From NCBI GenBank assembly GCA_005881885.1, contig VBDX01000133.1, positions 15,461 to 79,460 on the forward strand: DNA of 64,000 bases, in the 5' to 3' direction. Within the stretch, counting starts at the first letter, position 1. Every line of letters begins with the position of its first letter. The notes below the pieces were generated by a model. That model made no database searches and was not told where the DNA came from. It worked only from the letters and a program-made list of their open reading frames with translations. Of the stretch, positions 26,299 through 61,382 are shown one piece after another. The DNA comes from Chloroflexota bacterium. Lineage in GTDB: Bacteria; Chloroflexota; Limnocylindria; P2-11E. A program made the position numbers and the translations under genes.

Positions 26299-26560
26299 CG
26301 CTGTTCTCCTCTCGTCCAAACAAAAAGGCCCTCGTCCTCTTATTTCTGGGACGAGAGCCCTGGCTCCCGCGGTTCCACCCGCATTCCGCCTCGTGGCGGC
26401 ACTCATATCCGCGGTACGGGGCGGACCCACGTCGCTCGGCGGCGGTCTCTCCTATCCATTGACCGGCCGGCTCGCACCTTATCCGGCTCTCTGAACGGCC
26501 CTGCGCTGGAGCGGTGTCCGCGTCGTCGCGAGGCACAGATGATAGCGCGGGATTGAGCCG
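26299..26560 (-). promoter_or_regulatory. T-box riboswitch leader of thrS (T-box motif + intrinsic terminator/antiterminator)
   Basis: On the minus strand: 'GCGGGUGGAACCGCGGGAG' matches the T-box consensus AGGGUGGNACCGCG. It is followed by hairpin GGGCUCUCGUCCC-AGAAAUAAGA-GGACGAGGGCC + UUUUUGUUUGG ending ~25 nt before the thrS ATG. Confidence 0.6.
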
Positions 26561-26580
26561 GCCTTGACGCCGCATTGACG
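26552..26580 (+). promoter_or_regulatory. Triple direct-repeat operator-like element (ATTGAGC-cggc-CTTGACG-ccgc-ATTGACG, 11-bp periodicity), ~50 nt upstream of the Gfo/Idh/MocA-epimerase-flippase genes
   Basis: Seen directly in sequence; one of six copies of the same architecture in this window. Confidence 0.55.
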
Positions 26581-26628
26581 GCGGCTCCCGCGACCGGCCA
26601 CGCTGGTGCGCGACGGTCGCGGCGCCTC

Positions 26629-27795
26629 ATGCCGGGGCACAGCCGGCCTCAATCCACCGGCGATTTCAATAGACGTTCCGTGATCCACTCGGCGGCGCCG
26701 CGGCTCGACATCGCGGTCATCGGTTGCGGCGCGGCGGCCGAGGGCCTCTATCGGTACGCCCTCGGAGCGCTAGAGTCCCGCGGCATCGCTCGCGTCGCAG
26801 CGCTCGTCGACCCCAATCCCGTGCGGACCGCTGCGCTCCAACGACACTTTCGCGCGGCTAGAACCTTTGCCGATCCCGCAGACGCGTTCGCATCGGTAGC
26901 CGTCGACCTGGTGATCGTGGCGTCGCCGCCGGGGATGCACGCGCAGCACACGGTCGACGCCTTGGCCGCCGGCAGCCATGTGCTCTGCGAAAAGCCCATG
27001 GCGATCGGTGCCCCCGATGCCGAGCGGATGGTCGCCGCGGCCCGCGTGGCGCGGCGCATCCTCGCGGTCGGGATGACGCGACGGATGTATCCGTGTCTGG
27101 TCGAAGCGCAGCGACTCATCGCGCAGGGCACGCTCGGTGATCGACTGCGCTTCACGTACCGCGAAGGGCGCGTGTACGACTGGCCCGTCAACAGCGACGC
27201 GGCATTTCGTCGAGCGACGGCCGGGGGCGGCGTCCTCACGGACATCGGTTCGCACGTTCTTGACTTCTTGAGCGCGCTCTTCGGTGCGACGACCGCCACG
27301 AGCTACGCGGATGACGCGCACGCCGATGGCGTCGAGACGAACTGCCGGATCGAGGTCGTCTGCCCTGAGGCGAGCGGCGTCGTGCAGCTGTCCTGGAACC
27401 AGCCGCTCGTGACGAGGCTCCGCATCACGGGCTCGGCCGGAGAGCTAATGCTCGACCCCGGTCGGATCGACGCGCTCCGCGTACGGCGTGGCGGCGGCAC
27501 CTGGGAAACGCGGATCAGCACGGCGACGTGGCCGTCCGACCTCGCGACGCGCGGCCGCGGCGATACCCCGCGGACCCACCGGGACTGCGTCTACCACCAG
27601 CTCGTGCAGGTGTTGAGAGCCGTGACACACGGAGAGGATGTGCCGGTCGATGGCGAGCGGGGCCTCGCCGTCATCCGCGCGATCGATTCCTGCTACGAGC
27701 GCGCGACATCGTTCGAGCTCCCGTGGCTGGACGCGGCCGAGCGGTCGCAGGCCGACGCGCGTCACTGGACCCGGCGGCGATGCGCGGCGGCATAG
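26629..27795 (+). CDS. Gfo/Idh/MocA-family NAD(P)-dependent oxidoreductase (sugar-nucleotide dehydrogenase-like)
   Basis: N-terminal Rossmann 'LDIAVIGCGAAAEG', 'EKP' motif 'LCEKPMA'. Start uncertain (ATG 26629 or GTG ~26671). Confidence 0.8.
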   Translation: MPGHSRPQSTGDFNRRSVIHSAAPRLDIAVIGCGAAAEGLYRYALGALESRGIARVAALVDPNPVRTAALQRHFRAARTFADPADAFASVAVDLVIVASPPGMHAQHTVDALAAGSHVLCEKPMAIGAPDAERMVAAARVARRILAVGMTRRMYPCLVEAQRLIAQGTLGDRLRFTYREGRVYDWPVNSDAAFRRATAGGGVLTDIGSHVLDFLSALFGATTATSYADDAHADGVETNCRIEVVCPEASGVVQLSWNQPLVTRLRITGSAGELMLDPGRIDALRVRRGGGTWETRISTATWPSDLATRGRGDTPRTHRDCVYHQLVQVLRAVTHGEDVPVDGERGLAVIRAIDSCYERATSFELPWLDAAERSQADARHWTRRRCAAA

Positions 27796-28868: not shown

Positions 28869-28872
28869 AGCT

Positions 28873-30372: not shown

Positions 30373-30389
30373 CCCGCGGCTCGCGCTCT

Positions 30390-31106: not shown

Positions 31107-31129
31107 GCCTTAGCTCCTTAAGTCGCGCG

Positions 31130-31504
31130 CTAGTCCTCTTCCGACGCAGCCCGCAGGTTCACGACGTTCGATGCTTCGAGGTTCTCCATCTTGGAACGGC
31201 CTTCGAAGATGACGCCCTTCTCGACCATGAAAGATGGAGTCGTGATGTCGCCGCGCACCTTCGCCGGCCGATGGAGCTCGACGGCGCCCGTCGCCTTGAT
31301 GTTGCCGACGACCTCTCCCTCGACGATGACGGTGCCGCAGCTGATCTCCGCCGAGACCTTGGCGCCTTCGCCGATGTGCAACGTGTCGTTCGTCGAAATT
31401 TCGCCGGTGAAGTTGCCGTCGATCCGGACCTTGCCCTCAAAGGCAAGCTTGCCCTCGAACTCCGACCCGCGCCCCAGCGACGCATTGAGCTCGCTACCAG
31501 TCAT
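31130..31504 (-). CDS. Bactofilin (polymer-forming cytoskeletal protein, DUF583)
   Basis: 'GKVRIDGNFTGEISTNDTLHIGEGAKVSAEISCGTVIVEGEVVGNIKATGAVELHRPAKVRGDITTPSFMVEKG' beta-helical bactofilin repeats. ATG at 31504 (GGGAGG 7 nt upstream); alternative ATG at 31528. Confidence 0.75.
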   Translation of the reverse strand: MTGSELNASLGRGSEFEGKLAFEGKVRIDGNFTGEISTNDTLHIGEGAKVSAEISCGTVIVEGEVVGNIKATGAVELHRPAKVRGDITTPSFMVEKGVIFEGRSKMENLEASNVVNLRAASEED

Positions 31505-35423: not shown

Positions 35424-36685
35424 ACAGCCGCCTCGACCGGCGCGTCGGCCCAACGATGGGCTGAGCCAAGAAGCGACCTGACCACGCGCTGGGCCACGCC
35501 CAGACCGTGGTTCTGCTCGAGGTAGGCGTACCCGGCGCCGCGGAGGTTCGCCTGCAGCTCGGTGGACATCGCGACCTTCGCGAATCGGACGGCGAAAGCC
35601 CGCGGGTCGGATTCGACGAACACCTCTCGTCCGGGTTCGACCGCGAGACCCCGCGCCCCATCGGGCGTCGTCACCACGGGCACCCCATTGCGAAAGGCCT
35701 CGAGCAGCTTCATGCGCACGCCGGAACCGCCCAGCACCGGCGCGACCATCAGAGCGGACCGCTCGTACAGGGGCCCGAGCTCGGGAACTAACCCGAGGAC
35801 CGTTATCCCGGGCGCGCGCCACGCCGAGGGGACCAGCGGCGCGGCGCGCGAGCCATCCTCCAACCCCGAGCCCGCGATCTCCAGCGTCGCGGTCGGAAGC
35901 AGATCACGCACATGCGGCCACACCTGCCCGCAGAACCAGTCCAGCCCGCGCACGTTCGGATGCCAGGTAAGCGTTCCGACATAGCAGGCCCGCGGCGCGG
36001 CGCGCGTCTCGTTACGGCGTTCGAACGAGACGACCTGCGGTACCACGCGGGCTTCGACGCCCGCCAGTTCGCGATAGGCGCGCGCGTCGTCCGCGGAGAT
36101 CGCGCCGACGGCATCCACCTCACGGAGCACGTCGATCTCGAAGCGACGCGCGCGACGCCACTCGGCCTCGGCGACCGCGCGGCGGACACCACGCTGCCGT
36201 CGCGCGAACTGCGCCCAGATGTCGCTCTCCACGTTGTGCTGGTCGAGGACGATTCGCGCGCGCGGCTGGAGACGCCGGACCAGCGGCAGGTAGCGCGCGG
36301 TGCCGAGGGCGCCGAGCCACACTACGTCGAAGGGCTGACCGCGTAGCTCTCGCTCGATTGCGCTCCGCACCAGCGGCGACTCCCACTTCCCGGAGAGGTA
36401 CGGAACCCCGTGCACGATCCGTAGCCACGCGACGCGGGGAACGTAGCGGGGATGTTGAAAGAGATGGATCGGATGGAAGATCGGGTCGAGCACATCGACC
36501 TTCGGCATCTCGCGCGCGAGCCCGGCGCGAGCCGTGAAGGACGCCCGATCTTCGCTGAGCCAGAAGACCCGGATGCGTTCGACCTCAGGAAGCGACGAGA
36601 GCACTGCCAGCTGCGAGAGGACGCGAACCTGCCCCCCGCGAAGCGCCGGCCAGCCGAAATCAGGCGCCAGATAGAGAAGGCGCAT
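35420..36685 (-). CDS. Glycosyltransferase family 4
   Basis: GT-B fold with C-terminal '[20 protein letters not shown]' (EX7E-like region). ATG at 36685 ([13 protein letters not shown]). Confidence 0.75.
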
Positions 36686-36695
36686 TTGGTCCGTA

Positions 36696-36744
36696 GTTGA
36701 TGAACGACCCGCGGCATTGAGGGCCGGTATCGGGCCTGATTGAG
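36696..36744 (+). promoter_or_regulatory. Variant direct-repeat element (GTTGATG-N13-ATTGAGGGCC-N12-ATTGAGGGCC; 20/22-bp spacing) in the GT4/GT-C divergent intergenic region
   Basis: Same ATTGAG heptamer as the other five sites, at double helical spacing. Confidence 0.4.
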
Positions 36745-36870
36745 GGCCCGCCCGCCGCATGCCAGGCCGCGGGAGCCGTCTCCAGCAGAGCGCCCGCTTG
36801 GCCCGAAACGGCCTCAATGGGCCGGTCTAAGCCGCTTCAACCGCCGGAGTCCAACTTCGACTCTGCTCAC

Positions 36871-38487
36871 ATGCCCGATCTCTCCGTGGGCCTCGCGCCC
36901 CGACGGGCGGCGGCGGCCGCCTGGCCCCGCCCGGCGTGGCCACGCGCCCTCCGGGCGGCCGGACAGGTGGACGGCGCGGTGGCTCTGGGCCTCGCCGCGG
37001 TGGCGCTCGGGCTCGACCTCTTCAGGCTTCCCGGCCTGAGCCTTTGGGGAGATGAGCTCTTCTCGGTCCAGCTGGCGAGCCGGCCGTGGCCGGTCTTCTG
37101 GGAATTCCTCTCGCGGTACGAGCCGAACATGGCGCTCTACTACGTAGTGCTGCGGGGCTGGCTGGGGCTCACGAGTCTCCTCGGCATCGTTCCCGACGAG
37201 CTCGTCGTACGCGTGCCCTCGATCTTTTTCGCTGTCCTCAGCGTGATCGTCGTTTTCTGGATCGGGCGGCGGTTCTTCGGACGGACCGTCGGGATCGTGG
37301 GAGCGCTCCTGTACGCGCTCAATCTCATTCAGTTGACAGCGGCGCGCGAGGCGCGTTCCTACGGTCTCGAGATGTTCCTCTTGTGCCTAGGCTGGTACGC
37401 GTTCTTGCTGATCGTGACGCGGGACCGCCCTGGGCCGCGCGTGTACCTCGGATATATCGTCGCGATGGCGCTCGCCATCTATGCACACCTCTTCAGCACG
37501 CTGGTGCTCGCGTCGCAGGTGATCACATTCGCGGCCCTGCTCAGCCTCGACGGCGACTCGCGAGTGCGTCTGCGTCGCTCGGCCGGCGCGTTCGCGCGGA
37601 GTGTGGCGGCGATCGGCGTCGCCGTGATCCCGATGGGTGCCTACTTCTTCCGTCACGGATCGACGAACGCGTGGCTGCCGCCGGCGGACGCCACGGGTCT
37701 TGTTCGGTTGCTCTGGAATGTCGCCGGCCACCAGGTCATCTATGGCGTTCTTCTCGGGGTCGCGGTGCTCGCCGTTGTCGTTCTGGCCATCCGCGCGAGA
37801 GGTCACCGGGCGAAGGCCGCGCACGCCTGGCCGCGACTTGGGCCTTTGATCGCGCTCGGAGCCTGGGTCTGTGTCCCTGTCGCGCTGAGCTACGCCGCGA
37901 GCCAACCGCGGCTGAACCTGCACCTCTTCTCTTGGGGCTATCTCATCGTTGTGGTCCCTGCGCTCTGCTTGCTCGCCGGCATCAGCATCGCGGCCATCCG
38001 GCGGCCTCTTGCGCGACGTGCCGTCGCGACCAGTCTGGTTGCTGCCGCGGCACTGGCGATGCCGATCCTCACCTCTGCGCCGCAACAGGATTTCCGTACG
38101 GCCGCGCGCTGGGTCGAGGAGCGCTACCTGCCCGGCGACGGGCTCGTCGCCACGTCCTGGTCGTCCTCGCTCGCGATGGACTACTACGTGCGGATCGACG
38201 GCGCTCCAAACGAGCTGCTCGCGGCGTCACCGGCGCCCTGGTCCTGGACCGCAGGCGGGGACCAGCGGCTCGAGCAGCGCGCTATCGCCGAGTACACGGT
38301 CGCTCGCCACCGCATCTTCCTCGTGGACTCGCCGCTCGAGGGCGACTCGCCCGACGTAAAAGCGCGGTCGTGGATGGCGCGGACTTGGTTCGACTCCCGG
38401 TACGCGCTGGTCAGCGAAATCGCGCTACCGTCGGCGCTCGGGCAGGTCCGCGTGCGCCTGTATGACGTCGAGGAATTGCTGGACTAG
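36871..38487 (+). CDS. Integral-membrane GT-C-fold glycosyltransferase (ArnT/PMT-like, GT39/GT83-type)
   Basis: ~13 predicted TM helices, N-terminal periplasmic-loop 'LWGDELFS' acidic motif. Start 36817 (track) or ATG 36871. Confidence 0.6.
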   Translation: MPDLSVGLAPRRAAAAAWPRPAWPRALRAAGQVDGAVALGLAAVALGLDLFRLPGLSLWGDELFSVQLASRPWPVFWEFLSRYEPNMALYYVVLRGWLGLTSLLGIVPDELVVRVPSIFFAVLSVIVVFWIGRRFFGRTVGIVGALLYALNLIQLTAAREARSYGLEMFLLCLGWYAFLLIVTRDRPGPRVYLGYIVAMALAIYAHLFSTLVLASQVITFAALLSLDGDSRVRLRRSAGAFARSVAAIGVAVIPMGAYFFRHGSTNAWLPPADATGLVRLLWNVAGHQVIYGVLLGVAVLAVVVLAIRARGHRAKAAHAWPRLGPLIALGAWVCVPVALSYAASQPRLNLHLFSWGYLIVVVPALCLLAGISIAAIRRPLARRAVATSLVAAAALAMPILTSAPQQDFRTAARWVEERYLPGDGLVATSWSSSLAMDYYVRIDGAPNELLAASPAPWSWTAGGDQRLEQRAIAEYTVARHRIFLVDSPLEGDSPDVKARSWMARTWFDSRYALVSEIALPSALGQVRVRLYDVEELLD

Positions 38488-38502
38488 CGGTCCGGCCCGG
38501 GC

Positions 38503-47848: not shown

Positions 47849-48002
47849 GACGGCGACGACCGTATCGGCGCCTCATTGAAGGAGTGTTAGTTGGGCCATT
47901 ATTTCCCGTCGGTCGCCTGGTCGGTCGGGGGGAGGCTCGGCCAGGACGGCCTCAGCAAGCGCTACACCCACCCTCAATGCCGCCGCCGCTCCATAGGCGA
48001 GC

Positions 48003-50476: not shown

Positions 50477-50503
50477 CAGCCGGACTTAGAGGACTGTGCG
50501 CGG

Positions 50504-50532
50504 ATTGAGCGCCGATTGACGGTGCATTGAAG
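50504..50532 (+). promoter_or_regulatory. Triple direct-repeat element ATTGAGC-gccg-ATTGACG-gtgc-ATTGAAG upstream of the sugar-transferase operon
   Basis: Exact 11-bp periodicity; the same heptamer family as at 26552, 53360, 54456 and 61354. Confidence 0.55.
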
Positions 50533-50621
50533 AGCGCCCGCCAGGGCCCGGCCCGACCGTGGGGAGCGTCGGGAAAACGTCATGGTCAGGCCGTACCGAT
50601 CCTCAATGGTGCGGGGCTTCC

Positions 50622-51395
50622 ATGCTCCTCGTGGCAGCGGACCCGATCGCTCTCCAGTCCACGATGCCAGCCCGTGCGGACGGCGCACGGCTTTCCGATT
50701 GGTCGGTTGCGGGAGCGCAGGCCGACGCACCTGCGCTCTCCGCCGTTGCTCAGGCACTCGGGGCGGCGGCCCGTCGCGAGACCTTCTACGCATTCTCCAA
50801 GCGAGCGCTCGACCTGATGATCGCCGCCGTGCTCCTTCTGGGACTCGTGCCGCTTTTCGCGCTGGTCGCTATCGCGATCCGCTTCGACGGACCCGGGCCC
50901 ATCTTCTACCGTGGCGAGCGGCTCGGTCGCTACGGCAGCCGCTTCAGTGTCGTCAAGTTCCGATCGATGCGCGCCGACGCGGATCCGAACTCGCATTGCG
51001 CATTCCTCCGGAGCCTGATGCAGCAGGGCACAACGTGCACCGTTTACAAGGTCCCCGACGATCCCCGGATCACGCGGGTCGGCGCCATCCTTCGCAAGAC
51101 GAGCCTCGACGAGCTGCCGCAGCTCTGGAATGTGCTCCGCGGCGAGATGAGCCTCGTCGGTCCCCGCCCGGACGTCCCTTACGCCGTCGCGGAGTACAGC
51201 GACTGGATCCACCGCCGGCTTCTCGTGAAGCCGGGGATCACGGGCTTGTGGCAGGTCAGCGGTCGCAGCCGCCTGAGTCCCCTCGAGATGTACCGCCTCG
51301 ATGTGGCGTACGTCGCCGCGGCGTCACTGGCGTTCGACCTGCGGATCCTCCTGCGCACCATCCCGGTCGTCCTCACCCGGGACGGAGCGGCCTAG
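50622..51395 (+). CDS. Polyprenyl-phosphate sugar phosphotransferase (bacterial sugar transferase, WbaP/CpsE C-domain type; initiating enzyme)
   Basis: '[18 protein letters not shown] ... [10 protein letters not shown] ... [21 protein letters not shown]'. Start uncertain (ATG 50622 or 50664). Confidence 0.8.
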
Positions 51396-51398
51396 GCG

Positions 51399-52199
51399 GT
51401 GAGCGTGGCGATCGCAGCGCCCGCCGCCGGACAGCGCGCCCGAAAGATCCGCAGGGTCCGCAACTCGGACATCCTGCTTGGCGTCGTCGCCAGGGCGGTC
51501 CGCAGATCGCTCAGCGATCCAGAGCTTCGCCGCCGACTGCTGAAGGAGATCTGGATCGCGCTCAAGCGCTCCGCCGCCCAGAACGTCAAAGCCGTCGAGC
51601 TCTCACGCCTCCGCGGCATCGAGGCCGTCAGGGTGGACGGACCGATCACTCGTCTTTGCCCACTGGTCCTGAGCGCGCTCGCAACGATCCTCGAGTGCGA
51701 GACGATCTTCGAGTTCGGGACATTCCGCGGCGAGACCGCGTGGCTCCTCGCGCACAATCTTCCGAAGGCGCGCATCTTCACCCTCGACCTGCCCGGACAG
51801 GATGCGCACGACCACGCCGCGCTCGAGCTCACCGACGGGCCCGAATACTTCACCACCTGGGACCGCGGCGGCCGCTTCCGGGGAACGCCGGAGGCCGAGC
51901 GGATCACGCAGGTCCTCGGCGATTCGGCGACATTCGACTTCGCCCCGTACAGCGGCAAGGTCGACCTCGTGTACATCGACGCGAGCCACAGCTACAGCTA
52001 CGTCAAGGCCGATACCGAATCGGCGTTCGGGATGCTCTCTGAGCTCGGAACGATCGTCTGGGACGATTACACGTACTACCCGGGCATCTACGCGTATGTG
52101 AACGAGCTCGCGCCCACCCTCGACCGCCCTGTCTACCACATCCTCGGTACGCGCCTCGCGCTCTACAGCCGTTGGGACATCGTGGTCCCCGACATGTGA
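51399..52199 (+). CDS. Class I SAM-dependent O-methyltransferase (TylF/Methyltransf_24-like)
   Basis: 'ETIFEFGTFRGETAWLLAHNL ... DLVYIDASHSYSYVKAD'. GTG start. Confidence 0.7.
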   Translation: MSVAIAAPAAGQRARKIRRVRNSDILLGVVARAVRRSLSDPELRRRLLKEIWIALKRSAAQNVKAVELSRLRGIEAVRVDGPITRLCPLVLSALATILECETIFEFGTFRGETAWLLAHNLPKARIFTLDLPGQDAHDHAALELTDGPEYFTTWDRGGRFRGTPEAERITQVLGDSATFDFAPYSGKVDLVYIDASHSYSYVKADTESAFGMLSELGTIVWDDYTYYPGIYAYVNELAPTLDRPVYHILGTRLALYSRWDIVVPDM

Positions 52200-53386
52200 C
52201 GGAAGCCGAGCCGCGCATTCTCGTTGTCCTCGGCACCCGGCCCGAAGCGATCAAGCTCGCTCCGGTCATCAACGCTCTGCGCGCGACGCCCGATGCGCTG
52301 AGCGTCGGGGTGTGTGTTACCGGTCAGCATCGCGAGATGTTGACGCCGATCCTCGAGCTCTTCGGGATCGTGCCGGACTACCAGCTCGGCCTCATGACGC
52401 CGAACCAAAAGCTAGCGCGGCTCACGTCGGCGATCCTCGACGAGATCACGCCGGTCCTCGATGCCTTCCGTCCCGATTGGGTCATCGTCCAGGGTGATAC
52501 GACGACAGCTCTTGCCGCATGCCTCGCCTCGTTCTACCAAGGCGTTCGCGTGGCTCACGTGGAGGCCGGCCTGCGCACGAACGACAAGCGCCGACCTTTC
52601 CCCGAGGAGGCGAATCGCCGCATCGTCGATACGCTCTCCGACCTGCACTTCGCTCCCACCGAACGCGCCCGGCGGAGCCTCCTCGCGGAAGGGACCAACC
52701 CAGCGACCGTGCACGTGACCGGCAACACGGTCATCGACGCGCTCTGCCAGACCAGCGCGCGCGAGTACGACGTCGGGTCCGGTCCTCTCGCCGGGGTCCC
52801 CTTCGATCGGCGCATCGTCCTGGTCACCGCTCATCGACGGGAGAGCTTCGGCCAGGGCATGATCGCGATCTGCCGCGCCCTCGCGCGGCTCGTCGACGAG
52901 GTGCCGGACGTTCAGGTCGTGTATCCCGTGCATCTCAATCCGAACGTGCGTGACCCGGTGCGAGAGCGACTGGGCGGCGATCCACGGATCAGTCTTCTCC
53001 CGCCACTCGACTATCAGGCGCTCGTTCATTTGATGCGCCGGGCCACGCTGATCCTGACCGACTCAGGGGGCATCCAGGAAGAGGCGCCGACCCTAGGAAA
53101 GCCGGTGCTCGTCCTCCGCGAGGTGACCGAAAGGCCGGAAGCGATCGAAGCCGGTTGCGCCCGACTCGTCGGCACCGACGCGAGCCGCATCGTGAGCGAG
53201 GCGCGACGGCTTCTCCAAGACCGTGGCGCCTACGACCGGATGGCGCGAGTCGTGAATCCATTCGGCGACGGCCGCGCGAGCGAACGCATCGTCGCTGTGC
53301 TGCGGTCGGCCGATGTCGCCGCTCGCTCGGCGGCACGGGAGACTACCTCGCGGCAAGGGATTGAGGCCGCCTTGACGCCGAATTGA
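52196..53386 (+). CDS. wecB: UDP-N-acetylglucosamine 2-epimerase (non-hydrolysing)
   Basis: 'RILVVLGTRPEAIKLAPV ... VHVEAGLRT ... PEEANRR ... VTGNTVIDAL'. GTG at 52196 overlaps the methyltransferase TGA (GTGA); ATG 52172 is an alternative. Confidence 0.85.
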   Translation: MTEAEPRILVVLGTRPEAIKLAPVINALRATPDALSVGVCVTGQHREMLTPILELFGIVPDYQLGLMTPNQKLARLTSAILDEITPVLDAFRPDWVIVQGDTTTALAACLASFYQGVRVAHVEAGLRTNDKRRPFPEEANRRIVDTLSDLHFAPTERARRSLLAEGTNPATVHVTGNTVIDALCQTSAREYDVGSGPLAGVPFDRRIVLVTAHRRESFGQGMIAICRALARLVDEVPDVQVVYPVHLNPNVRDPVRERLGGDPRISLLPPLDYQALVHLMRRATLILTDSGGIQEEAPTLGKPVLVLREVTERPEAIEAGCARLVGTDASRIVSEARRLLQDRGAYDRMARVVNPFGDGRASERIVAVLRSADVAARSAARETTSRQGIEAALTPN

Positions 53387-53388
53387 AG
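53360..53388 (+). promoter_or_regulatory. Triple direct-repeat element ATTGAGG-ccgc-CTTGACG-ccga-ATTGAAG upstream of secreted-protein paralog A (overlaps the last codons of wecB)
   Basis: Exact 11-bp periodicity. Confidence 0.55.
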
Positions 53389-53529
53389 ACTCGCAGCGCC
53401 GCCAGCGCGGTCGGAAGACCCCGGCCGCAAGAAGTAACGCCGTGCCTCAGCGCTCCTCAACGCCCCGGCTTTGTCATCAGACGCGACGGCCAGGGTGCCG
53501 GTATTTGCCGTTGGAACGAGGAGATCTGA

Positions 53530-54441
53530 ATGAAGACTTCGCTGCTGCGCCGCCTTAGTCCGTTCGCAATCGTCGCGGTCGTCCTGCTCCAGCTAACCGT
53601 TGGTGCGCGACCCGCCGCCGCGGCGCCAGGTGCCGTGATCGCCGACGTCGTCGTGCCCTTCGGAGACGATGGAACGCTCTGGCCCGTGGGCATCTCATCC
53701 AGCGTCGCCTTTGACGGAAAGTATCTCTACTACGCCGAGTACAGCGGTCCGATCCTGCATCGCATCGACGTGCCCCCGGCGGGCGGGCCGACCCCGGCGA
53801 CGAACAAGATAGACATGCCGATCGTCGGGATGCACGCCGGAGCGATGTCGCTCGCCTACGACCGCGGCCGCGACATGTTCTGGGCGATCGGTGGCGACGG
53901 ACTCTCGGTCTATCTCCTCAGCAAGACCGGCATCGCAACGCTCATGTTCACGATCAACGCGGCGACCGACCGCCCCGGCTATCAGCCCACGACCTACGCG
54001 ACAGAGACCAAGCTCGCATACGACCGGTCCGACGACACGATCTGGTACGCGCCGGACGCCAATTCGCGCATCTTCCACTACCGGGCGTTTGGGGACACTC
54101 TCGGCTTCGCCCAGCTCGTCGCCGGGTCGCCATTCTTGGACGTCAGCGTGCCGCCGAACGACATGACACCGCAGTGCGGATACAGCATCGTGAGCGGGGT
54201 CGCGGTCGGTGGTCGCGACCTCTTCCTGGACATCGCGGGCTGTCCCTACTACTTCGAATATTCCAAGACCGGGACGAAGATCGGTTGGTTCCCTCTCGCG
54301 GGCACCGCCGCTGGCGACGTGGAATGCGACAACGTGAGCTACGGCGTGTCCGTGCTGTGGGTGAAGGACGCGTGGGCCGGTCACTTCCGGGCGTACGAGC
54401 AGCCCTCGGCGGGCGCGTGTGCCTTCGGCGGCGGGCTCTGA
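53530..54441 (+). CDS. Secreted protein of unknown function, beta-propeller-like (paralog A)
   Basis: Signal peptide, strong GGAGA RBS. Recurrent blade-like units 'VAFDGKYLYY', 'LAYDRGRDMFWA', 'KLAYDRSDDTIWY', 'DANSRIFHY'. 60-70% identical in blocks to the gene at 61470. Confidence 0.6.
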   Translation: MKTSLLRRLSPFAIVAVVLLQLTVGARPAAAAPGAVIADVVVPFGDDGTLWPVGISSSVAFDGKYLYYAEYSGPILHRIDVPPAGGPTPATNKIDMPIVGMHAGAMSLAYDRGRDMFWAIGGDGLSVYLLSKTGIATLMFTINAATDRPGYQPTTYATETKLAYDRSDDTIWYAPDANSRIFHYRAFGDTLGFAQLVAGSPFLDVSVPPNDMTPQCGYSIVSGVAVGGRDLFLDIAGCPYYFEYSKTGTKIGWFPLAGTAAGDVECDNVSYGVSVLWVKDAWAGHFRAYEQPSAGACAFGGGL

Positions 54442-54455
54442 CCCGCCCTTCGCGC

Positions 54456-54484
54456 ATTGAGCGCTCGTTGACGCTGGGTTGACC
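54456..54484 (+). promoter_or_regulatory. Triple direct-repeat element ATTGAGC-gctc-GTTGACG-ctgg-GTTGACC upstream of the 979-aa secreted protein
   Basis: Exact 11-bp periodicity. It overlaps the TTG used as the ORF start in the track, which argues for a later true start. Confidence 0.55.
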
Positions 54485-54580
54485 GGAATGGGCAAAGAGC
54501 GGCGCTATCGCGAGGCGCGTTCCGAAAGGTCATGCCGTCGCCGCAGCGCTCCTCAATCCGCGACGTGTTTGATCCCACCC

Positions 54581-57418
54581 GTGCGCGGAGATCTCCGGCA
54601 TCGGCTCGCGCTGATCCTCGTCACGGCGATGGTCGGTGTATACCTCTACGCCGCGGAGCCGTCACCGGCGACGACGGCCCTTGGCGCCGACAATCCGATC
54701 GTCGTTGAGAACCAGTTCCCGGGATCGAACGCGTGGCTTCCGGGATCGTCCATCGCCGACGATGCGGCCGGACAGATCAAGGGCTACGCCTCGGCGACCA
54801 GCGTCGCTCAGGGACAGAGCATCAGCCTGTTCGTCACGGTCAGCCCGGCCCAGACCTACACGATCGACTTCTACCGGCTCGGCTACTACGCCGGCGCCGG
54901 TGGCCGGCTTCGTCTGCAGACCGGCCCGCTCAACGGCGTCACGCAGGCCCCGTGCGGTGCGGACTCGACCACGGGCCTCATCGAGTGCAACTGGCCGCCG
55001 AGCTACACGCTGACCATCCCGAGCGATTGGACGAGCGGCGTCTACATCGTCAAGCTGACGAACTCCCTCGGATATCAGAACTACGTCATGTTCGTCGTCA
55101 AAGACGGGCGCCCGGCGCCGTACCTCTACCAGCAGGCCGTCCTCACCGACCAGGCCTACAACAACTACCCGAACAATCACGTGACCGGGAAGAGCCTCTA
55201 CAGCTTCAATAGCTACGGGCCGAACACGGTCGCCGGCGAAACGCGGGCGGTCAAAGTCTCGTTCGATCGTCCCTACGCGGACTACGGCTTTCCAGAGGTG
55301 GATGCCATCGAGTTCATCCGCTGGATCGAGCGTTCTGGTTACGACGTCACGTACTCGACGAATGTCGACACGCATGCGAATGGTTCAGCCCTCCTGACTC
55401 ACAAGGCCTTCATGTCGATCGGCCACGACGAGTACTGGTCGAAGCCGATGTTCGACGCGGTCCAGGCCGCCCGCGACGCGGGGGTTGGTCTGGCGTTCTT
55501 CGGAGCGGACGCGGTCAGCGTGCAGGTGCGAATCGAGTCTGCGACCGACGGCGAACCTAACCGCGTGGTGGTCTGCTACAAGAGCGCGGCCCTCGACCCG
55601 GTGCAGGGTCCGACGACCACGGTCGCGTGGCGCAGCGCACCGGTGAATCGTCCCGAACAGGCACTCCGGGGGATCCAGGACACCTTCCACGCGATCGTGA
55701 ACTCGAACGTGGATTACGTGGTCAACAACAGCTCTCACTGGATCTATGCCGGGACCGGCTTCAAGGACAACGATGTGGTGCCGGGGATCGTCGGCTACGA
55801 GAGCGACCGCTTCATGACCGGGTTCCCCGCTCCGAACTCGACGAACCAAACGCTCTTGTCGCATTCGCCGTTCACCAACAACGAGGGCGGCGCCGAGTAC
55901 CAGAACTCCTCCATCTACCAGGCCCCGAGCGGCGCATGGGTCTTCTCGTCCGGCACGATGTCGTGGAGCTGGGGCCTGGACAGCTTCTGGCACGGACGCG
56001 CAGACGCCCGGATCCAGCTAACGACGACCAACCTCCTCAACGCGTTCACCGCCGCTCCCGCCCCCACACCCACTCCGACGCCAACACCTACTCCAACCCC
56101 GACACCTACTCCCACGCCGACGCCTACTCCGACACCGACGCCAACTCCGACGCCAACTCCGACGCCGACACCTACCCCGACGCCGACACCTACTCCCACA
56201 CCGACGCCACCACCGAGCGGCGTCCACGATCTTCGGGTGACGGCCGCGGCGACCACGACTGCGGGCCAGTCCTTCACCGTCGGTGTGACCGCCGAGGACG
56301 CGCTGGGCAGCCCGGTCACGTCTTACAGCGGCACCGTTCACTTCGCCAGCAGCGACACGTCGTCGGGGGTCGTGCTGCCAGCCGACTCGACCTTGACGAA
56401 CGGTCAGGGCACCTTCTCGCTGACCCTGACCAAGGCCGGATCGCAAACGGTCACCGTTTCCGACGCCGCGAACGCGCTCACCACGACCGCGACAATGGGC
56501 GTCACTGCCGCGGCGGCCAACAGTCTCGCGCTCGCCACCGCGGCCAGCCCGAAGGCCGGGACGCCCTTCCAGTTCACCGTGACCGCGAAGGACTCGTTCG
56601 GCAACACCGACACGTCCTACGCCGGGACGGTGCACTTCACGAGCAGCGATAGCGCGAGCGGCGTGTCGCTTCCGGCTGACGGCAGCCTGACGAACGGTCA
56701 GCAGACCTTCTCGGCGACGCTGGTCACGCTCGGCTCGCAGACCATCACGGCCACCGGCGCGACGATCACCGGAACGCTTTCGGTCACCGTCAGCCCGGGG
56801 AACGCGTCGAAGCTCGTGCTTGCCACCAGCGGCACTCCGACCGCCGGTACGGCTTTCCAGTTCACCGTGACCGCGCAGGACCCCTTTGGTAACACGGCCA
56901 CGTCCTACACCGGGACGGTGCACTTCACGAGCAGCGACACGTCCTCGGGCGTCGTGCTCCCGGCCGACTCGACCTTGACGAACGGCCAGCGGACGTTCTC
57001 GGCGACGCTCATCAGGGCCGGTGCCCAGACGATCACCGCGACGGACAAAGTCACCTCGAGCATCACCGGGAACCTCAATGTCTCGGTGCGGCCCGGCGCC
57101 GCCGCGGTCGTCATCGTCGCGGCGCCAGCGACCGTCGTGGCGGGCCAGTCCTTCAACTTCACGGTCACGCTGAAGGACGGCTTCGGGAACGCGGCGACCG
57201 GCTACACCGGGACGATGCACTTCACGACCAACGACATCTCGCCGCTCGTCGTGTTGCCAGCGGACTACGCCTTCAATGGCGGCGACGCCGGAGCGCACAC
57301 CTTCTCGGCGACCCTCTGGACGCCGCCGAGCCGGCCGATCACCGCGACGGACACCGTAAACGCGAGCCTCACCGGCACGGCGGCGGTAGGAGTGACGCTG
57401 GTGCCACCGCTCCCGTAG
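54581..57418 (+). CDS. Large secreted protein: N-terminal ~500-aa domain (possibly N,N-dimethylformamidase-large-subunit-like), (PT)n linker, and four tandem ~95-aa bacterial Ig-like (Big-type) repeats
   Basis: Likely GTG start at ~54581 giving the signal peptide 'RGDLRHRLALILVTAMVGVYLYAA'. Repeats of 'GTPFQFTVTAKDSFGNTDTSYAGTVHFTSSD ... LTNGQ.TFSATL'. The family assignment of the N-domain is from memory only. Confidence 0.6.
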   Translation: MRGDLRHRLALILVTAMVGVYLYAAEPSPATTALGADNPIVVENQFPGSNAWLPGSSIADDAAGQIKGYASATSVAQGQSISLFVTVSPAQTYTIDFYRLGYYAGAGGRLRLQTGPLNGVTQAPCGADSTTGLIECNWPPSYTLTIPSDWTSGVYIVKLTNSLGYQNYVMFVVKDGRPAPYLYQQAVLTDQAYNNYPNNHVTGKSLYSFNSYGPNTVAGETRAVKVSFDRPYADYGFPEVDAIEFIRWIERSGYDVTYSTNVDTHANGSALLTHKAFMSIGHDEYWSKPMFDAVQAARDAGVGLAFFGADAVSVQVRIESATDGEPNRVVVCYKSAALDPVQGPTTTVAWRSAPVNRPEQALRGIQDTFHAIVNSNVDYVVNNSSHWIYAGTGFKDNDVVPGIVGYESDRFMTGFPAPNSTNQTLLSHSPFTNNEGGAEYQNSSIYQAPSGAWVFSSGTMSWSWGLDSFWHGRADARIQLTTTNLLNAFTAAPAPTPTPTPTPTPTPTPTPTPTPTPTPTPTPTPTPTPTPTPTPTPTPTPTPPPSGVHDLRVTAAATTTAGQSFTVGVTAEDALGSPVTSYSGTVHFASSDTSSGVVLPADSTLTNGQGTFSLTLTKAGSQTVTVSDAANALTTTATMGVTAAAANSLALATAASPKAGTPFQFTVTAKDSFGNTDTSYAGTVHFTSSDSASGVSLPADGSLTNGQQTFSATLVTLGSQTITATGATITGTLSVTVSPGNASKLVLATSGTPTAGTAFQFTVTAQDPFGNTATSYTGTVHFTSSDTSSGVVLPADSTLTNGQRTFSATLIRAGAQTITATDKVTSSITGNLNVSVRPGAAAVVIVAAPATVVAGQSFNFTVTLKDGFGNAATGYTGTMHFTTNDISPLVVLPADYAFNGGDAGAHTFSATLWTPPSRPITATDTVNASLTGTAAVGVTLVPPLP
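56060..56215 (+). repeat. Hexanucleotide tandem repeat (ccgacg/ccaacg/cctact units) encoding a (Pro-Thr)n linker
   Basis: ~26 consecutive PT dipeptides. Similar DNA repeats recur at 62405-62700, 59690-59770, 33290-33460/33780-34000 and 10720-10830. Confidence 0.7.
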
Positions 57419-57596
57419 GGCGGCGAGCACAGCCAGGCACGCTCGGAATGAAGCCTGAGTGAGAGGACGCCGACGAGTTCAGCGGCCCAGAGCCAGCGCC
57501 TGGCTGGAAGCTCGCCTTGTTCTCCGGGTAGAGCGTATCGACGATCCCCTCACTTTGGCCCTCGGCCGAACGCCTGTATCCTTGGCTCTACGCGGG

Positions 57597-58334
57597 GTGG
57601 GTGCTGCCGAGAACGATGCCGGTCAGCGCGTCGGGATCCTCGTTGTCGATGACGACCGGGAGCTCGTCGACCTTCTTGCCTTCCTTATGGAGCAATCCGG
57701 GCTGACCCCGCTCTGCGCGACCGAACCCGTCGCCGCGCTCGAGCTCTTCGACAAGGAAGACCCGTACGTGGCGGTCGTCGATCTCAACCTCAAGCCGTGG
57801 GATGGCTTCGAGCTGCTTGCGGAGCTCCGCCGGCGCAGCGCGCGGATCCCGATCCTCGTCCTCACCGGGCGCGGCAGCGAGGACGACAAGGTGCGAGCGC
57901 TCGACATGGGCGCGGATGACTACGTCGTCAAGCCTTTCTTGCACCGCGAGCTTGTGGCCCGGATCCGAGCGCTTGCACGGCGCGCGCAGATGGACCGCAA
58001 TGTCATCGAGCCGACCATCCTGGAGGCGGGTCCGCTCCGCCTCGACCTCAAAGAGCGTGGGCTCCAGATCGACGGAGCCGACGTCCGCCTCACCGGGACC
58101 GAGTTCCGGCTCCTGGAATACCTGATGCGCCACCTCGACAGCGTCGTCTCCACGACCTCGCTGGCGCGGCACGTGTGGGGCTATGACGACCCCCCGGCGC
58201 GTGACGTGGTGCGAGTGACGGTGCACCGGCTGCGCCGCAAGCTTGGCGACGATGGCGAGAGCCCGCGTTTCGTCCACACCGTTCCGGGCGTCGGACTCAA
58301 GCTTCGGTCCACACCGTCTCAACGGGCGAGCTAG
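57597..58334 (+). CDS. OmpR/PhoB-family response regulator (receiver + winged-helix)
   Basis: 'GILVVDDDREL ... VVDLNLKPWDGFELL ... YVVKPF' receiver domain, then an OmpR-type wHTH. GTG start ~57597; the track ORF (57459) has a GC-rich extension. Confidence 0.8.
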   Translation: MGAAENDAGQRVGILVVDDDRELVDLLAFLMEQSGLTPLCATEPVAALELFDKEDPYVAVVDLNLKPWDGFELLAELRRRSARIPILVLTGRGSEDDKVRALDMGADDYVVKPFLHRELVARIRALARRAQMDRNVIEPTILEAGPLRLDLKERGLQIDGADVRLTGTEFRLLEYLMRHLDSVVSTTSLARHVWGYDDPPARDVVRVTVHRLRRKLGDDGESPRFVHTVPGVGLKLRSTPSQRAS

Positions 58335-58468
58335 CCCCCGCTGTAACGGCATTGTGTCGGCTGCCGGGCCGGTGTAACGCCTTTGTTCCCTAACGCTTAA
58401 CGCATCGAGGCATCCCATTTGCGGTTTCTACAGGCCGTGGCTCGGTGAGCCGCGACTCGCATGGGGGT

Positions 58469-59281
58469 ATGGATTTCATGATCAAGATCCTGCTGGTCGA
58501 AGACGATCTCGACATGCTCGACCTGACCGCGTATGTCCTTCGGAGAGAGCGATTCGTCGTGATGGAGGCCTCGGACGGCGCAGCGGCCCTGCGGCGATGG
58601 AGAGCCGACCGTCCGGACCTCGTCGTCCTCGACCTTGGTCTGCCGAGCCTCGATGGGTTCGAGGTCCTGCGTCGCATCCGTGCCGACGACGAGACGCCGA
58701 TACTCGTCCTCACCGGTCGGCGCGACGCCCAGGACATTTTGCGGGTCTTCAACCTGGGATCCGATGACTTCCTCGCCAAGCCGTTCGAGTTCAAGGAGCT
58801 CATCGCACGGATTCGCGCGATCCTGCGCCGCGTCCAAACATCCCCGAAGGAGAACACCGAGCCCCGCGTCGAAGTCGACGGGCTCAAGCTCGACCCCGAG
58901 GCATACGAGGTGGCGTGGAGAGATGCCTACGTCCGACTCACGCCCACCGAGTTCCGCATCCTCTACCTCCTCGTGACGAATGCCGGACACGTGGTCTCCG
59001 CCAATCGCCTCTACACGTACGTGTGGGGCAGCGAAGGCGGCGACGCGAACGCGTTGCGATCGCACATCAGCCACCTGCGGCGAAAGCTCGAGACGACGGG
59101 GGAAACGCCGGGCACGATCTCGTCGGTGCCGGCGATCGGCTACGTCTACCGCAAAGTCGCGCAGCCCGCGACCGTCCCGGTGGAGACGACCGCGATCGCA
59201 CCATCGGCACCGAGTTCGAAAGACGACCGGGTCCCGACCCCTACGGCGACGGCGCAGGTCGCTCCCGCGGCATCCGGCTAG
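58469..59281 (+). CDS. OmpR/PhoB-family response regulator (second, adjacent)
   Basis: 'KILLVEDDLDML ... LVVLDLGLPSLDGFEVL ... FLAKPF' receiver + wHTH, with a C-terminal Pro/Thr/Ala tail. No histidine kinase nearby. Confidence 0.8.
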   Translation: MDFMIKILLVEDDLDMLDLTAYVLRRERFVVMEASDGAAALRRWRADRPDLVVLDLGLPSLDGFEVLRRIRADDETPILVLTGRRDAQDILRVFNLGSDDFLAKPFEFKELIARIRAILRRVQTSPKENTEPRVEVDGLKLDPEAYEVAWRDAYVRLTPTEFRILYLLVTNAGHVVSANRLYTYVWGSEGGDANALRSHISHLRRKLETTGETPGTISSVPAIGYVYRKVAQPATVPVETTAIAPSAPSSKDDRVPTPTATAQVAPAASG

Positions 59282-59431
59282 CGGGCGCGGTCGAGCGCCG
59301 CGAGCGGCGGGAAGGCGAGGTCGGTTCACGACGACGCGCTTCCCGGCCCGGCAGCAGCCTCGAGTCAGGAGAACACGCGGTGGGCCGTGTGAAGGGAAAC
59401 GAAAGCGAGAGCCCGGCCCTCGCCCTTTCCG

Positions 59432-59505
59432 TGGGCTCTGCGTGGCTCGAACACGCGACCTCAGCGATGTCAACGCTGCGCTCTAACCAGCTGAGCTAAG
59501 AGCCC
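59432..59505 (-). tRNA. tRNA-Val (anticodon GAC), 74 nt, CCA not encoded
   Basis: Minus-strand sequence GGGCUCU-UA-GCUC-AGCUGGUUA-GAGC-G-CAGCG-UUGACAU-CGCUG-AGGUC-GCGUG-UUCGAGC-CACGC-AGAGCCC-A folds as a canonical cloverleaf with anticodon GAC. Confidence 0.85.
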
Positions 59506-59571
59506 GAGAACCAAAGTCTACTTCAAAGATCGTCTTCTGATCCCGGCCAGTAACGGGCGCGCGCCGGCCCG

Positions 59572-60198
59572 ATGTTTGAATCGCGCCACATGCGTCATCT
59601 CGCCGCAGGCATCGCGCTAACGATCGCTCTCACGGCTTGCGGATCGAGTACGGCGTCCGTGCCACAACCCGTGCCGACCCCCGCGGCGCCGACCGTCACC
59701 CCGTACCAGACGATGACGCCGACTCCGATCCCGCCGACACCGGCTCCGACGCCGACACCGACGCCAGGCCCCACGCTCTCCTCGGTGGCGGCCGAAAAGT
59801 ACTTCCATCCGCTCGCGGGGTACGAGCTCGTCGTCCCGCCCCCAGAAGTCGCGACGCAGCTGCAGGCCCTCGTCTCGGCCCCCGAGGTGACCGACATCGC
59901 CACCGGCGTTGCGCTGCGCTTGGTGACCCGGAACGGCGATGCAGCGAACATGGCCGTCCTCAGCCTCTCGCTGCTGCCGTCGTACGCTGCGCTCCCCGGA
60001 GTCCTCGACGAATTCGCCGCGAGCTACTCGCAGGCCGCGGTCGAGCGCTTCACACTCGCCGGCCATCCGGCGCTCTACTACCAGACCGCCCCGAAGAGCC
60101 TCGTGTGGGCCCACCGCACGTACATCCTCGTGGTCTACGGCACCGACCGAGCGGCGATGACCCGGTTGGGCGAAGCACTCATCGCATCGAACCCGTAG
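59572..60198 (+). CDS. Lipoprotein of unknown function with a Pro/Thr-rich linker
   Basis: Lipobox 'LTACGSS', then '[34 protein letters not shown]', then a ~130-aa domain. Confidence 0.5.
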   Translation: MFESRHMRHLAAGIALTIALTACGSSTASVPQPVPTPAAPTVTPYQTMTPTPIPPTPAPTPTPTPGPTLSSVAAEKYFHPLAGYELVVPPPEVATQLQALVSAPEVTDIATGVALRLVTRNGDAANMAVLSLSLLPSYAALPGVLDEFAASYSQAAVERFTLAGHPALYYQTAPKSLVWAHRTYILVVYGTDRAAMTRLGEALIASNP

Positions 60199-61288
60199 CG
60201 CTGGTCGCGCCGAACATCCGCAGGCTCTCCGTCGGAGCATCCTTCGCGAAACACACCACCCTGAACGCGCCCAACCCATTCGGATCGAGCAACGCGTCGA
60301 TCGCCGAGCGCCGGCTCGCCGCGCGCAGTTGCTCGATCGGGATCGACGGTCGCGCCGTGGCCTCGCGGATGCCGAGCGCGAGCAACACCTCGCGCTGCAT
60401 CGCGGATCCCGCGAAGCGAAGTCCCGCGCCTTCCGCGGCACGGCGGATCGCCGTGAAGTCAACGCTCGCGGTCAGGTCGTGGCGGCCAGGCTCGGCCAGC
60501 GGATCGGAGATGAGGCGATGACCAGCGAACCCGCGGATCGTGCCCGCGCCGTCGCGCGTCAGGAGATCGGTCTCCTCGCCACCGTAGTCGACGAAGACGA
60601 CGTAGCCCGACACCAGGGCGCCCGCGAGGCTTGCGACCCAGCCTTCAGCCGCGGGGCTGGTCTCCCACCGGCCGCCGAGGGGCACGGATTCGGGGACACG
60701 CCAGCGCAGATCCTGGCTGGGCACGCGTAAGACCTCCACGAGCGCCCCGCTCTGTTCGCCGACGAAGACCTCGCGCACACCCTCGGGCGTTCTGATCAAG
60801 ACGTGGACCGGAAACGCGTCGAGGACCTCATTCGCGAACAGGACGCCCTTGATGGGCGCGAGGCTGTGAGCGACGGACGCCCATCGCAGGTCACGCCCCT
60901 CGAGCGCGAGCGATTGCTGCCCGCGCATGCGCGGCGAGACCTCGACGATCGCGGGCCGCACCCCTCGAACGGCGTCGGATCGTTCGCGCTCCAGCGCGGA
61001 GAGCAGATCGCGCATGAGGATGCCGCGTCCCGCACCTGCTTCGACGAGATCCCAGACCGCCGGCCGTCCCATGTGCGACCAGAGATCAGAGACGCCGCGC
61101 GCCAGCGATTTCCCGAACGCTGGGCCCAGGTCCGCCGAGGTGACGTAATCGCCGTCGAATCCGATCGACGCCCGAGTCGTGTAGTAACCATCCTCCGGGT
61201 CGTAGAGGGCCGCCTCCATGTAGTCGGCGAATGTGATCGCTCCACCCGAGCGAATCCGCGCGACGATCCGATCGCCGAGCTTCCCCAC
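60179..61288 (-). CDS. MidA/NDUFAF7-like class I SAM-dependent methyltransferase (DUF185)
   Basis: 'EAGAGRGILMRDLL' SAM motif and 'FANEVLDAFPVH' typical of MidA. Confidence 0.65.
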   Translation of the reverse strand: MGKLGDRIVARIRSGGAITFADYMEAALYDPEDGYYTTRASIGFDGDYVTSADLGPAFGKSLARGVSDLWSHMGRPAVWDLVEAGAGRGILMRDLLSALERERSDAVRGVRPAIVEVSPRMRGQQSLALEGRDLRWASVAHSLAPIKGVLFANEVLDAFPVHVLIRTPEGVREVFVGEQSGALVEVLRVPSQDLRWRVPESVPLGGRWETSPAAEGWVASLAGALVSGYVVFVDYGGEETDLLTRDGAGTIRGFAGHRLISDPLAEPGRHDLTASVDFTAIRRAAEGAGLRFAGSAMQREVLLALGIREATARPSIPIEQLRAASRRSAIDALLDPNGLGAFRVVCFAKDAPTESLRMFGATSATGSMR

Positions 61289-61353
61289 GCGGTCGAGGGT
61301 ATATGGCAGCTAAAGGCGGCGCGGGATCCGTAAAGATCCGGTAACGCTCATGG

Positions 61354-61382
61354 ATTGAGCATCCGTTGACGTCGAGTTGACG
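61354..61382 (+). promoter_or_regulatory. Triple direct-repeat element ATTGAGC-atcc-GTTGACG-tcga-GTTGACG upstream of secreted-protein paralog B
   Basis: Exact 11-bp periodicity; GTAACGC lies 13 nt upstream. Confidence 0.55.

Follow-up and report, generated by a model that had tools for sequence, protein, structure and literature searches.

A ~130-bp module of two inverted three-site arrays, most likely a docking site of tandem OmpR/PhoB-type regulators, at polysaccharide and secreted-protein operons of Limnocylindria

The window analysed here, a 64,000-nt stretch of contig VBDX01000133.1 from a Chloroflexota bacterium of the class Limnocylindria, is chromosomal: Pfam annotation of its scanned open reading frames (ORFs) finds the markers EF-G, TyrRS, PBP1, MutS2, PheST, L20, IF3 and ThrRS, and next after these marker genes comes a ~37-kb polysaccharide locus. 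Limnocylindria are abundant in soils and uncultured, and we know of no work on their gene regulation. A sequence-only reading of this stretch had pointed to six intergenic sites built of TTGA-containing heptamers in an 11-bp rhythm, and had proposed that two response regulators encoded nearby bind them. All six sites are present where that reading placed them. There is also a seventh, on the minus strand at 47984-47850, which was recovered with a covariance model, and all seven copies stand at the 5' ends of operons. The triplets turn out to form just one end, the distal one, of a module of ~130 bp, whose anatomy, distribution and probable function are the subject of this report.

Five copies are read on the plus strand. 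Module 1 (26552-26682; 66 bits) begins with the heptamers ATTGAGC (26552-26558), CTTGACG (26563-26569) and ATTGACG (26574-26580), continues to a CTCAAT box (26648-26653) and a -10-like TTCAAT (26665-26670), and leads into the GTG (26680) of a GFO/IDH oxidoreductase-epimerase-flippase operon. Module 4 (50504-50633; 78 bits) has its trio at 50504-50532, CGTCATG at about 50578-50584, CTCAAT at 50602-50607 and TTCCAT at 50618-50623, ahead of GTG 50631 of a Bac_transf-methyltransferase-WecB operon; a GH39 gene (ATG 50476) is divergent from it. Module 5 (53360-53532; 67 bits; trio 53360-53388, CTCAAC 53456-53461, TGTCAT 53472-53477) precedes a gene that we call paralog A, which is leadered, with its ATG at 53530 and a GGAG Shine-Dalgarno sequence. 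The TGA stop (53384-53386) of the wecB ORF (52172-53386) falls inside heptamer 3 (ATTGAAG) of this module, so that the wecB coding sequence ends within its distal array. Module 6 (54456-54583; 79 bits; trio 54456-54484, GGTCATG, CTCAAT 54552-54557, TTTGAT 54568-54573) leads into GTG 54581 of a DMFA2_C/Ig-repeat protein gene, which is followed by the regulator genes RR1 and RR2, and module 7 (61354-61481; 53 bits; trio 61354-61382, CTCAAC 61450-61455, TCGAAT 61466-61471) into GTG 61479 of paralog B.

The remaining two copies, modules 2 and 3, are variants that lie between divergent operons. On its plus side module 2 (36685-36873; 27 bits) has ATTGAGG at 36716-36722 and CTCAAT at 36813-36818, followed by ATG 36871 of a PMT_2/GT-C glycosyltransferase gene; on its minus side the reverse complement of box 1 reads CTCAAT-N10-GTTCAT (36721-36700) and faces a divergent GT1 gene (ATG 36685). 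Module 3 (47848-48005) scores 28 bits on its minus side, where ATTGAGG from 47978 and TTCAAT at 47880-47875 precede ATG 47848 and an operon for two unknown proteins, Wzy, GT4, a deacetylase and a FemAB-like protein, and 15.5 bits on its plus side, where CTCAAT-N10-CTCCAT (47973-47994) is followed by a GT2 gene (ATG 48003). An unbiased search for CTCAAY-N14-AT gave six matches against 0.95 expected, and these include the reverse sides of both variant modules; each end of the two bidirectional modules is the proximal array for its own gene. Module 2 is the sixth of the sites reported earlier and a true relative of the triplet sites, if a variant one, although the 22-bp spacing given for its ATTGAG repeat is wrong: the copies stand at 36716 and 36739, 23 bp apart. 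The count of six is also one short, and two of the seven sites are bidirectional.

On the GH39-side strand of counterparts of module 4 in related loci (L011, L097, L067; the far side of the Bac_transf module), box 1 takes the form CTCAAT-N10-(C/G/A)TAAAT, possibly a second promoter. How far it lies from the GH39 start codon differs between loci, and in the window (50476-50504) TCCTCT stands in its place.

The two regulators are encoded in tandem on the plus strand. RR1 (57597-58334), whose closest solved relatives are RegX3 and PrrA, and RR2 (58445-59281), whose closest solved relative is Mycobacterium tuberculosis PhoP (2e-47), are both OmpR/PhoB-family proteins and candidate binders of the module; both have complete receiver and Trans_reg_C winged-helix domains (Pfam) and the DD..D..T..K motifs, and they are the only DNA-binding proteins in the locus. 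A gap of ~180 nt without a module match (57419-57596) separates the Ig-repeat gene from the likely GTG of RR1 (57597), and the pair may have its own promoter besides read-through. Between RR2 and module 7 lies a tRNA-Val(GAC) gene (59431-59505, minus strand), the sole Rfam or ARAGORN match in the window.

That the phased triplets are no product of chance, as the sequence-only reading had argued, is borne out by exact matches to TTGA-N7-TTGA-N7-TTGA: there are five in the window, all on the plus strand (26553, 50505, 53361, 54457 and 61355), and none in any of 100 dinucleotide-preserving shuffles. At a fixed distance 3' of each triplet stands a reverse-complement box, CTCAA(T/C), and the span from ATTGAG to CTCAA is 101-103 nt in all six cases; for this pairing we observe 10 strand-matches where 0.2 would be expected.

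A pattern scan over 185,579 species genomes returned 17 matches, of which 10 are clearly homologous and the other seven are chance matches in low-GC or otherwise unrelated genomes. Eight of the homologous ten are labelled Candidatus Limnocylindria or 'Chloroflexi bacterium CF_x' (soil metagenome-assembled genomes, MAGs). The other labels, Candidatus Udaeobacter (L008, DATLPP010000085.1) and Pseudonocardiaceae (L014, DASXTS010000521.1), belong to contigs that carry a Limnocylindria-type element and gene order and are therefore probably misbinned. A relaxed metagenome pattern contributed ~30 further loci, mostly from soil samples. In the window, the sequence-only covariance model R1, which was built on alignment A3, recovers seven copies and no more, namely the six reported sites and the degenerate minus-strand copy; in 38 related loci it finds 67 copies (59 distinct), and the genes downstream of these encode sugar transferases, epimerases, glycosyltransferases and Ig-repeat proteins. 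Note that both scans demanded exact ATTGAG, TTGA and CTCAA, so that the invariance of those letters in copies fetched by pattern is partly circular; variation was judged on model-found copies without exact matches, such as L079:4360, L007:5528 and L015:6508. We found no description of the motif in the literature searched.

Aligning 56 non-redundant copies reveals a module with the 5' to 3' order of a distal trio, a spacer of ~45 bp, a proximal inverted trio, exactly 10 bp, the hexamer T-T-N-C-A-T and then, usually after 7 nt, a GTG or ATG. The distal trio has the consensus ATTGAGC-n4-GTTGACG-n4-ATTGAAG, with TTGA cores and 11/11-bp spacing invariant in all 52 copies in which distal spacing was scored, whereas the spacer has essentially zero information content. 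The proximal boxes read AA-CG-TCATG, CC-GCA and C-CTCAA-T. At the window sites an (A)ACGTCATG box recurs ~22 nt ahead of CCTCAAT and T-T-N-C-A-T 10 nt behind it; across the alignment, the A of the GCA box is invariant and lies 8 nt before CTCAAT. Within the hexamer the first T is conserved at 0.89, the A at 0.92 and the last T at 1.00, and this last T lies 20 nt from the T of CTCAAT in 47 of 47 copies, which makes CTCAAT-N10-TTNCAT an invariant unit. Other distances are slightly looser, with 22-23 nt from TCAT to TCAA and 50-54 nt from heptamer 3 to TCAT. Read on the opposite strand, the distal trio becomes CTTCAAT, CGTCAAC and GCTCAAT, of one half-site family with the proximal CGTCATG, ..GCA.. 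and CCTCAAT; the module thus consists of two three-site arrays in inverted orientation. Their centres are ~7 helical turns apart, and the half-sites of the distal array are better conserved than those of the proximal one.

A short form of the module is found upstream of UDP-glucose dehydrogenase in two related loci (L009:1154-1264 and L062:5046-5156). It has a normal proximal half and hexamer, but a single ATTGAGG, which stands 43 nt ahead of CTCAAT and so is nearer to it than usual by ~54 nt, or some five helical turns.

What does the proximal end do? Of 51 scorable copies, 39 have the first in-frame start of a long ORF with high GC content at third codon positions 6-9 nt past the hexamer, 28 of them at exactly 7 nt. 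None of these 39 starts has a Shine-Dalgarno-like motif, compared to 6 of the 11 starts at distances above 12 nt. The +7 rule extends across unrelated families (Bac_transf, WecB, UDP-glucose dehydrogenase, GT1, GT2 and GT4 glycosyltransferases, epimerases, a GDSL lipase, DMFA2_C/Ig-repeat proteins and two unknown ones), and in sugar-transferase orthologues the first five codons past the +7 start vary mainly at third positions, indicating that these codons are translated. Leaderless genes are marked by a -10-like signal whose first T lies ~12-13 nt ahead of the start codon (PMC3160421). The geometry of hexamer and start codon in the module matches this signature, which would put +1 at or just before the start codon. 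Judging from the alignment, transcription most likely begins ~7 nt after T-T-N-C-A-T, usually at the GTG or ATG, and yields mRNAs that are mostly leaderless. Numbered from this putative +1, the hexamer would occupy about -13 to -8, CCTCAAT -30 to -24, GCA -38 to -36 and CGTCATG about -53 to -47, with the proximal array as a whole at about -53 to -24 and the distal triplet at about -126 to -98.

The proximal array, with half-sites phased at roughly 11 bp, is placed and oriented (on the coding strand) like a Pho box or pmra-box and ends exactly 10 bp upstream of the hexamer; no conserved hexamer is found at the canonical -35 position. It appears that the proximal trio replaces the -35; the -10 identity of the hexamer is deduced from its 7-nt distance to the starts. 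A lineage-specific -10 consensus could not be drawn from 132 other ORF starts, among which reliable starts were too few. A sigma-54 promoter (GG-N10-GC at -24/-12) was considered and rejected, as the G and C of TTGCA are unconserved (0.21 and 0.56) and the GG that should precede them by 10 nt is missing; no AAA+ activator is encoded in the loci fetched through RR2. The ECF, SigB and sigma-28 consensus sequences do not fit in spacing or conserved bases.

Which protein might read the arrays is suggested by linkage that runs in both directions. Orthologues of RR1 and RR2, always in tandem, occur in at least 13 loci that were fetched by the DNA motif alone (identity 56-88% for RR1 and mostly 69-88% for RR2), often in the very operon that an element leads, directly behind its other genes; in L002 and L094, for example, the order is element, Bac_transf, (methyltransferase), RR1, RR2. 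Conversely, all seven loci fetched through an RR2 homologue alone hold one to five elements within 10 kb, and the element usually heads the operon that ends in RR1-RR2. The sequence-only reading had proposed this adjacent pair as binders, and on the strength of the linkage they are by far the best candidates. It had also noted that no kinase accompanies them, and indeed neither the window nor, in the RR2-fetched loci, the 10 kb around the pair encodes a histidine kinase; neither a sigma factor nor an integrase is found in the window or in those neighbourhoods. In one related locus (L137:7360-8094) a gene for a third OmpR-type regulator lies just upstream of the element-Bac_transf-RR-RR operon.

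Taken together, the element is most likely the docking site of RR1 and RR2. We put the probability at roughly 60% that the module is a ~130-bp activator-dependent promoter, mostly of leaderless mRNAs, predicted to be bound by the locus's own RR1/RR2. Imagine that the regulators, once phosphorylated by an unlinked kinase, bind the arrays: the strong distal sites would be occupied first, the weak proximal sites would then be filled cooperatively through bending or looping of the spacer, and the array-bound regulators would recruit RNA polymerase. Such a scheme would activate polysaccharide synthesis, the secreted Ig-repeat proteins and the regulators themselves in concert, with autoregulation as a part of it, since element-led operons end in RR1-RR2. 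Between divergent operons, a symmetric version of the module would serve both directions.

A number of observations sit uneasily with this picture. The proximal half-sites are weak, the middle one being GCA only, and their spacing is 22-23 bp rather than a strict 22. The usual targets of OmpR/PhoB proteins are paired direct repeats in head-to-tail order, and three-site arrays, let alone two inverted ones, depart from this textbook arrangement. In 12 of the 51 copies no start codon lies next to the hexamer, and the hexamer itself has no A at position 2, which a sigma-70-type -10 normally needs, so that a different sigma factor may be involved or the hexamer may have a different meaning. Keep in mind, too, that the tie to the regulators is one of genomic linkage, that the activator role, the transcription start site and the identity of the binder are all things that we infer, and that particular boxes may belong to either RR1 or RR2.

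Might the element instead act as RNA, or move? The ends of the module are reverse-complementary at a fixed distance of ~100 nt, TGACG is complementary to CGTCA, and the copy at 26552 folds with z = -3.6, all of which would suit a structured cis-regulatory RNA in the 5' untranslated region, with ATTGAG/CTCAAT as closing stem and TTGACG pairing with CGTCA. We nonetheless consider such an RNA highly improbable. Rfam families give only chance matches at gathering or permissive (E<=10) thresholds; an all-against-all covariation scan (mutual information with average product correction, MI/APC) is flat, with 1 of the 50 top column pairs Watson-Crick-like against a background of 3.6%; and the ATTGAG/CTCAAT and TGACG/CGTCA pairs have a covariation score equal to that of shuffles. 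Uncompensated mismatches are common, with 15 of 54 copies showing A.C at the first pair and two P2 pairs open in 21-22 of 55. Folding of the spacer does not exceed that of shuffles (mean z = -0.05), and the element as a whole has z = -0.65 on the plus and -0.81 on the minus strand, equal strands as for a DNA palindrome. Moreover, SD-less starts (without a Shine-Dalgarno motif) 7 nt past a -10-like box imply that transcripts do not include the element. RNAalifold was also applied in testing this reading. Two further structures were rejected: a local hairpin around heptamer 2 (GCGCCG-ATTGA-CGGCGC), for which 48% of cells are paired, as in shuffles, and an extended P1 or GAGCGC/GCGCTC register, for which the 41 sequences inspected show no compensation. 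A structured RNA is not supported, and the element is double-stranded DNA; the earlier proposal of a cis-regulatory element acting at the DNA level, ahead of polysaccharide and secreted-protein operons, stands. As to mobility, the terminal inverted repeats, the length of ~100 nt and the multiple copies might recall a miniature inverted-repeat transposable element (MITE), a repetitive extragenic palindrome (REP) or an integron attC site, with its RYYYAAC...GTTRRRY-like ends, and GCTCAAC does fit RYYYAAC. Yet the copies have only the boxes in common (mean column identity 61%), lie at orthologous positions ahead of the same genes in many species, and are constant in their orientation towards start codons and their distance from them; what lies between copies are operons of 1-10 kb and not cassettes, and there is no integrase or transposase among the scanned window ORFs. 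The mobile repeat family that the sequence-only reading had named as a possible undoing of its proposal is hence not what we find here, and of the alternatives it is the one we hold least credible.

Other alternatives concern where the polymerase sits and what brings it there. According to the sequence-only reading the triplet is an activator site overlapping the -35; on that view transcription would start ~30 nt past heptamer 3 and the remainder would form a leader of ~95 nt. The third heptamer is indeed often -35-like (TTGACG or TTGAAG), and 11-bp direct repeats suit the OmpR/PhoB family. If the triplet did overlap a -35, however, a -10 element should follow 16-18 bp past the third heptamer, where none is found and where the next ~45 columns have ~0 information; the -10-like box lies ~85 nt downstream of that heptamer, and a consensus scan of the module region finds no sigma-70-type -35/-10 pair. 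Given these absences the triplet is not the -35: as far as the alignment goes, it is an upstream auxiliary array. The -35 proposal also leaves unexplained the rigidly placed CGTCATG, GCA, CCTCAAT and TTNCAT boxes and the 7-nt distance to SD-less start codons, and we regard it as improbable. Less easily set aside, although still unlikely, is that the module is a real promoter with another reader, be it an alternative sigma factor on GCA/CTCAAT/TTNCAT or an unlinked transcription factor, with RR1 and RR2 as merely co-regulated cargo. The non-canonical -10-like hexamer, with no A at position 2, would be in keeping with this, and since RR1-RR2 themselves lie downstream of modules their linkage could reflect co-regulation. 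Against it, the loci have neither a sigma factor nor another DNA-binding protein in common, the conserved boxes lie 10 and 21 bp from the hexamer where sigma region 4 would call for 16-18 bp, and 7-bp phased repeats with 4-bp spacers are a signature of the OmpR/PhoB family (PMC11825685, PMC10570014). Finally, we tentatively entertain a bolder form of regulator binding, which we judge about as unlikely as another reader: RR1 and RR2 might form a hetero-oligomer with differing half-site preferences (TTGAG/CTCAA versus TTGACG/CGTCA) that bridges the inverted three-site arrays over a DNA loop of ~70 bp, so that this nucleoprotein complex, and not a -35, would position RNA polymerase (possibly with a non-housekeeping sigma factor) on T-T-N-C-A-T for leaderless transcription in one or both directions. 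Such a two-regulator switch, if true, would be an architecture undescribed for the OmpR/PhoB family.

Returning to the activator-dependent promoter that we favour, how does it compare with known systems? OmpR at ompF occupies three sites, F1-F2-F3, and a distal F4 in hierarchical order, and the distal site probably acts through a DNA loop. The module is similar in combining several phased sites with a distal site, although at ompF the distal site is ~300 bp away and represses, and the architecture is not near-palindromic. The PhoB half-site, CTGTCAT, is similar to the proximal CGTCAT, a likeness that we take as a lead only. In Pho boxes, tandem direct repeats with a period of 11 bp take the place of the -35 and stop 10 bp short of the -10, and the cyanobacterial regulator SphR requires at least three tandem repeats (PMC1906773). 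The module shares with the E. coli PhoB and SphR boxes the 11-bp phase, the apparent replacement of the -35 and the 10 bp to the putative -10, but differs in having two inverted arrays ~50 bp apart, the half-site CNTCAAT, the putative -10 T-T-N-C-A-T and probably mostly leaderless mRNAs, and in serving polysaccharide and secreted-protein genes instead of phosphate genes through two tandem regulators with no linked kinase.

The pmra-box of PmrA/BasR, XTTAAY-N5-XTTAAY (CTTAAT, CCTAAG), lies on the non-template strand, overlaps or replaces the -35 and controls genes for envelope-polysaccharide modification (PMC10570014). CTCAAT is one base off CTTAAT and the targets again include genes for cell-surface polysaccharides, whereas the pmra-box has two repeats only, no distal inverted array, a sigma-70 consensus -10 and a cognate kinase, PmrB. 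M. tuberculosis PhoP, to which RR2 is matched at E = 2e-47, binds as dimers, tetramers or hexamers to 7-bp sites with 4-bp spacers, the same dimensions as in the module; it displaces sigma region 4 from the -35, and one to three tandem dimers reach upstream from there (PMC11825685). Unlike these contiguous arrays of one orientation, the trios of the module are split by a ~45-bp unconserved gap and a flip of orientation. With the leaderless promoters of high-GC bacteria the module shares a hexamer ~12-13 nt before the start and no Shine-Dalgarno sequence, although their consensus is TANNNT (PMC3160421) and the T-T-N-C-A-T of the module is without the A at position 2.

Most likely, then, the module defines a new regulon of a familiar promoter kind and not an RNA switch. 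What would be new is the second, inverted array at a fixed ~50-bp gap, the three sites per array, the non-canonical -10, the mostly leaderless targets and the two tandem orphan regulators. The dual inverted-array geometry, if confirmed, would widen the known range of OmpR/PhoB promoter architectures, and the alignment argues for leaderless mRNAs with a non-canonical -10 in Limnocylindria. The module also amounts to a ready, testable regulon, with a DNA target of 130 bp, a pair of candidate regulators, and a target set, made up of enzymes for exopolysaccharides and of secreted Ig-repeat proteins, that probably shapes cell surface, aggregation or biofilm behaviour, and the covariance model can be used to annotate promoters and operon starts in MAGs of Limnocylindria.

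Some of the proteins behind the modules deserve comment in their own right. Paralog A (53530-54441) and paralog B (61479-62711) have no Pfam match; homologues occur in 16 related loci and form the N-terminal domain of Ig-repeat proteins in some of them, and the C-terminus of paralog B is a long (TP)n / PLP low-complexity tail. Ig-like repeats (GTVHFTSSD..LTNGQG.F.ATL) are common to secreted proteins driven by the element, namely those encoded downstream of L118:4983, L007:5528 and L079:4360 and at 54581-57418 in the window. The window protein has three such repeats and a different tail; at their C-termini the Ig-repeat proteins of the three loci (L118, L007 and L079) all end in TQFKWVNV(S/T)LL, possibly a sorting signal not described before.

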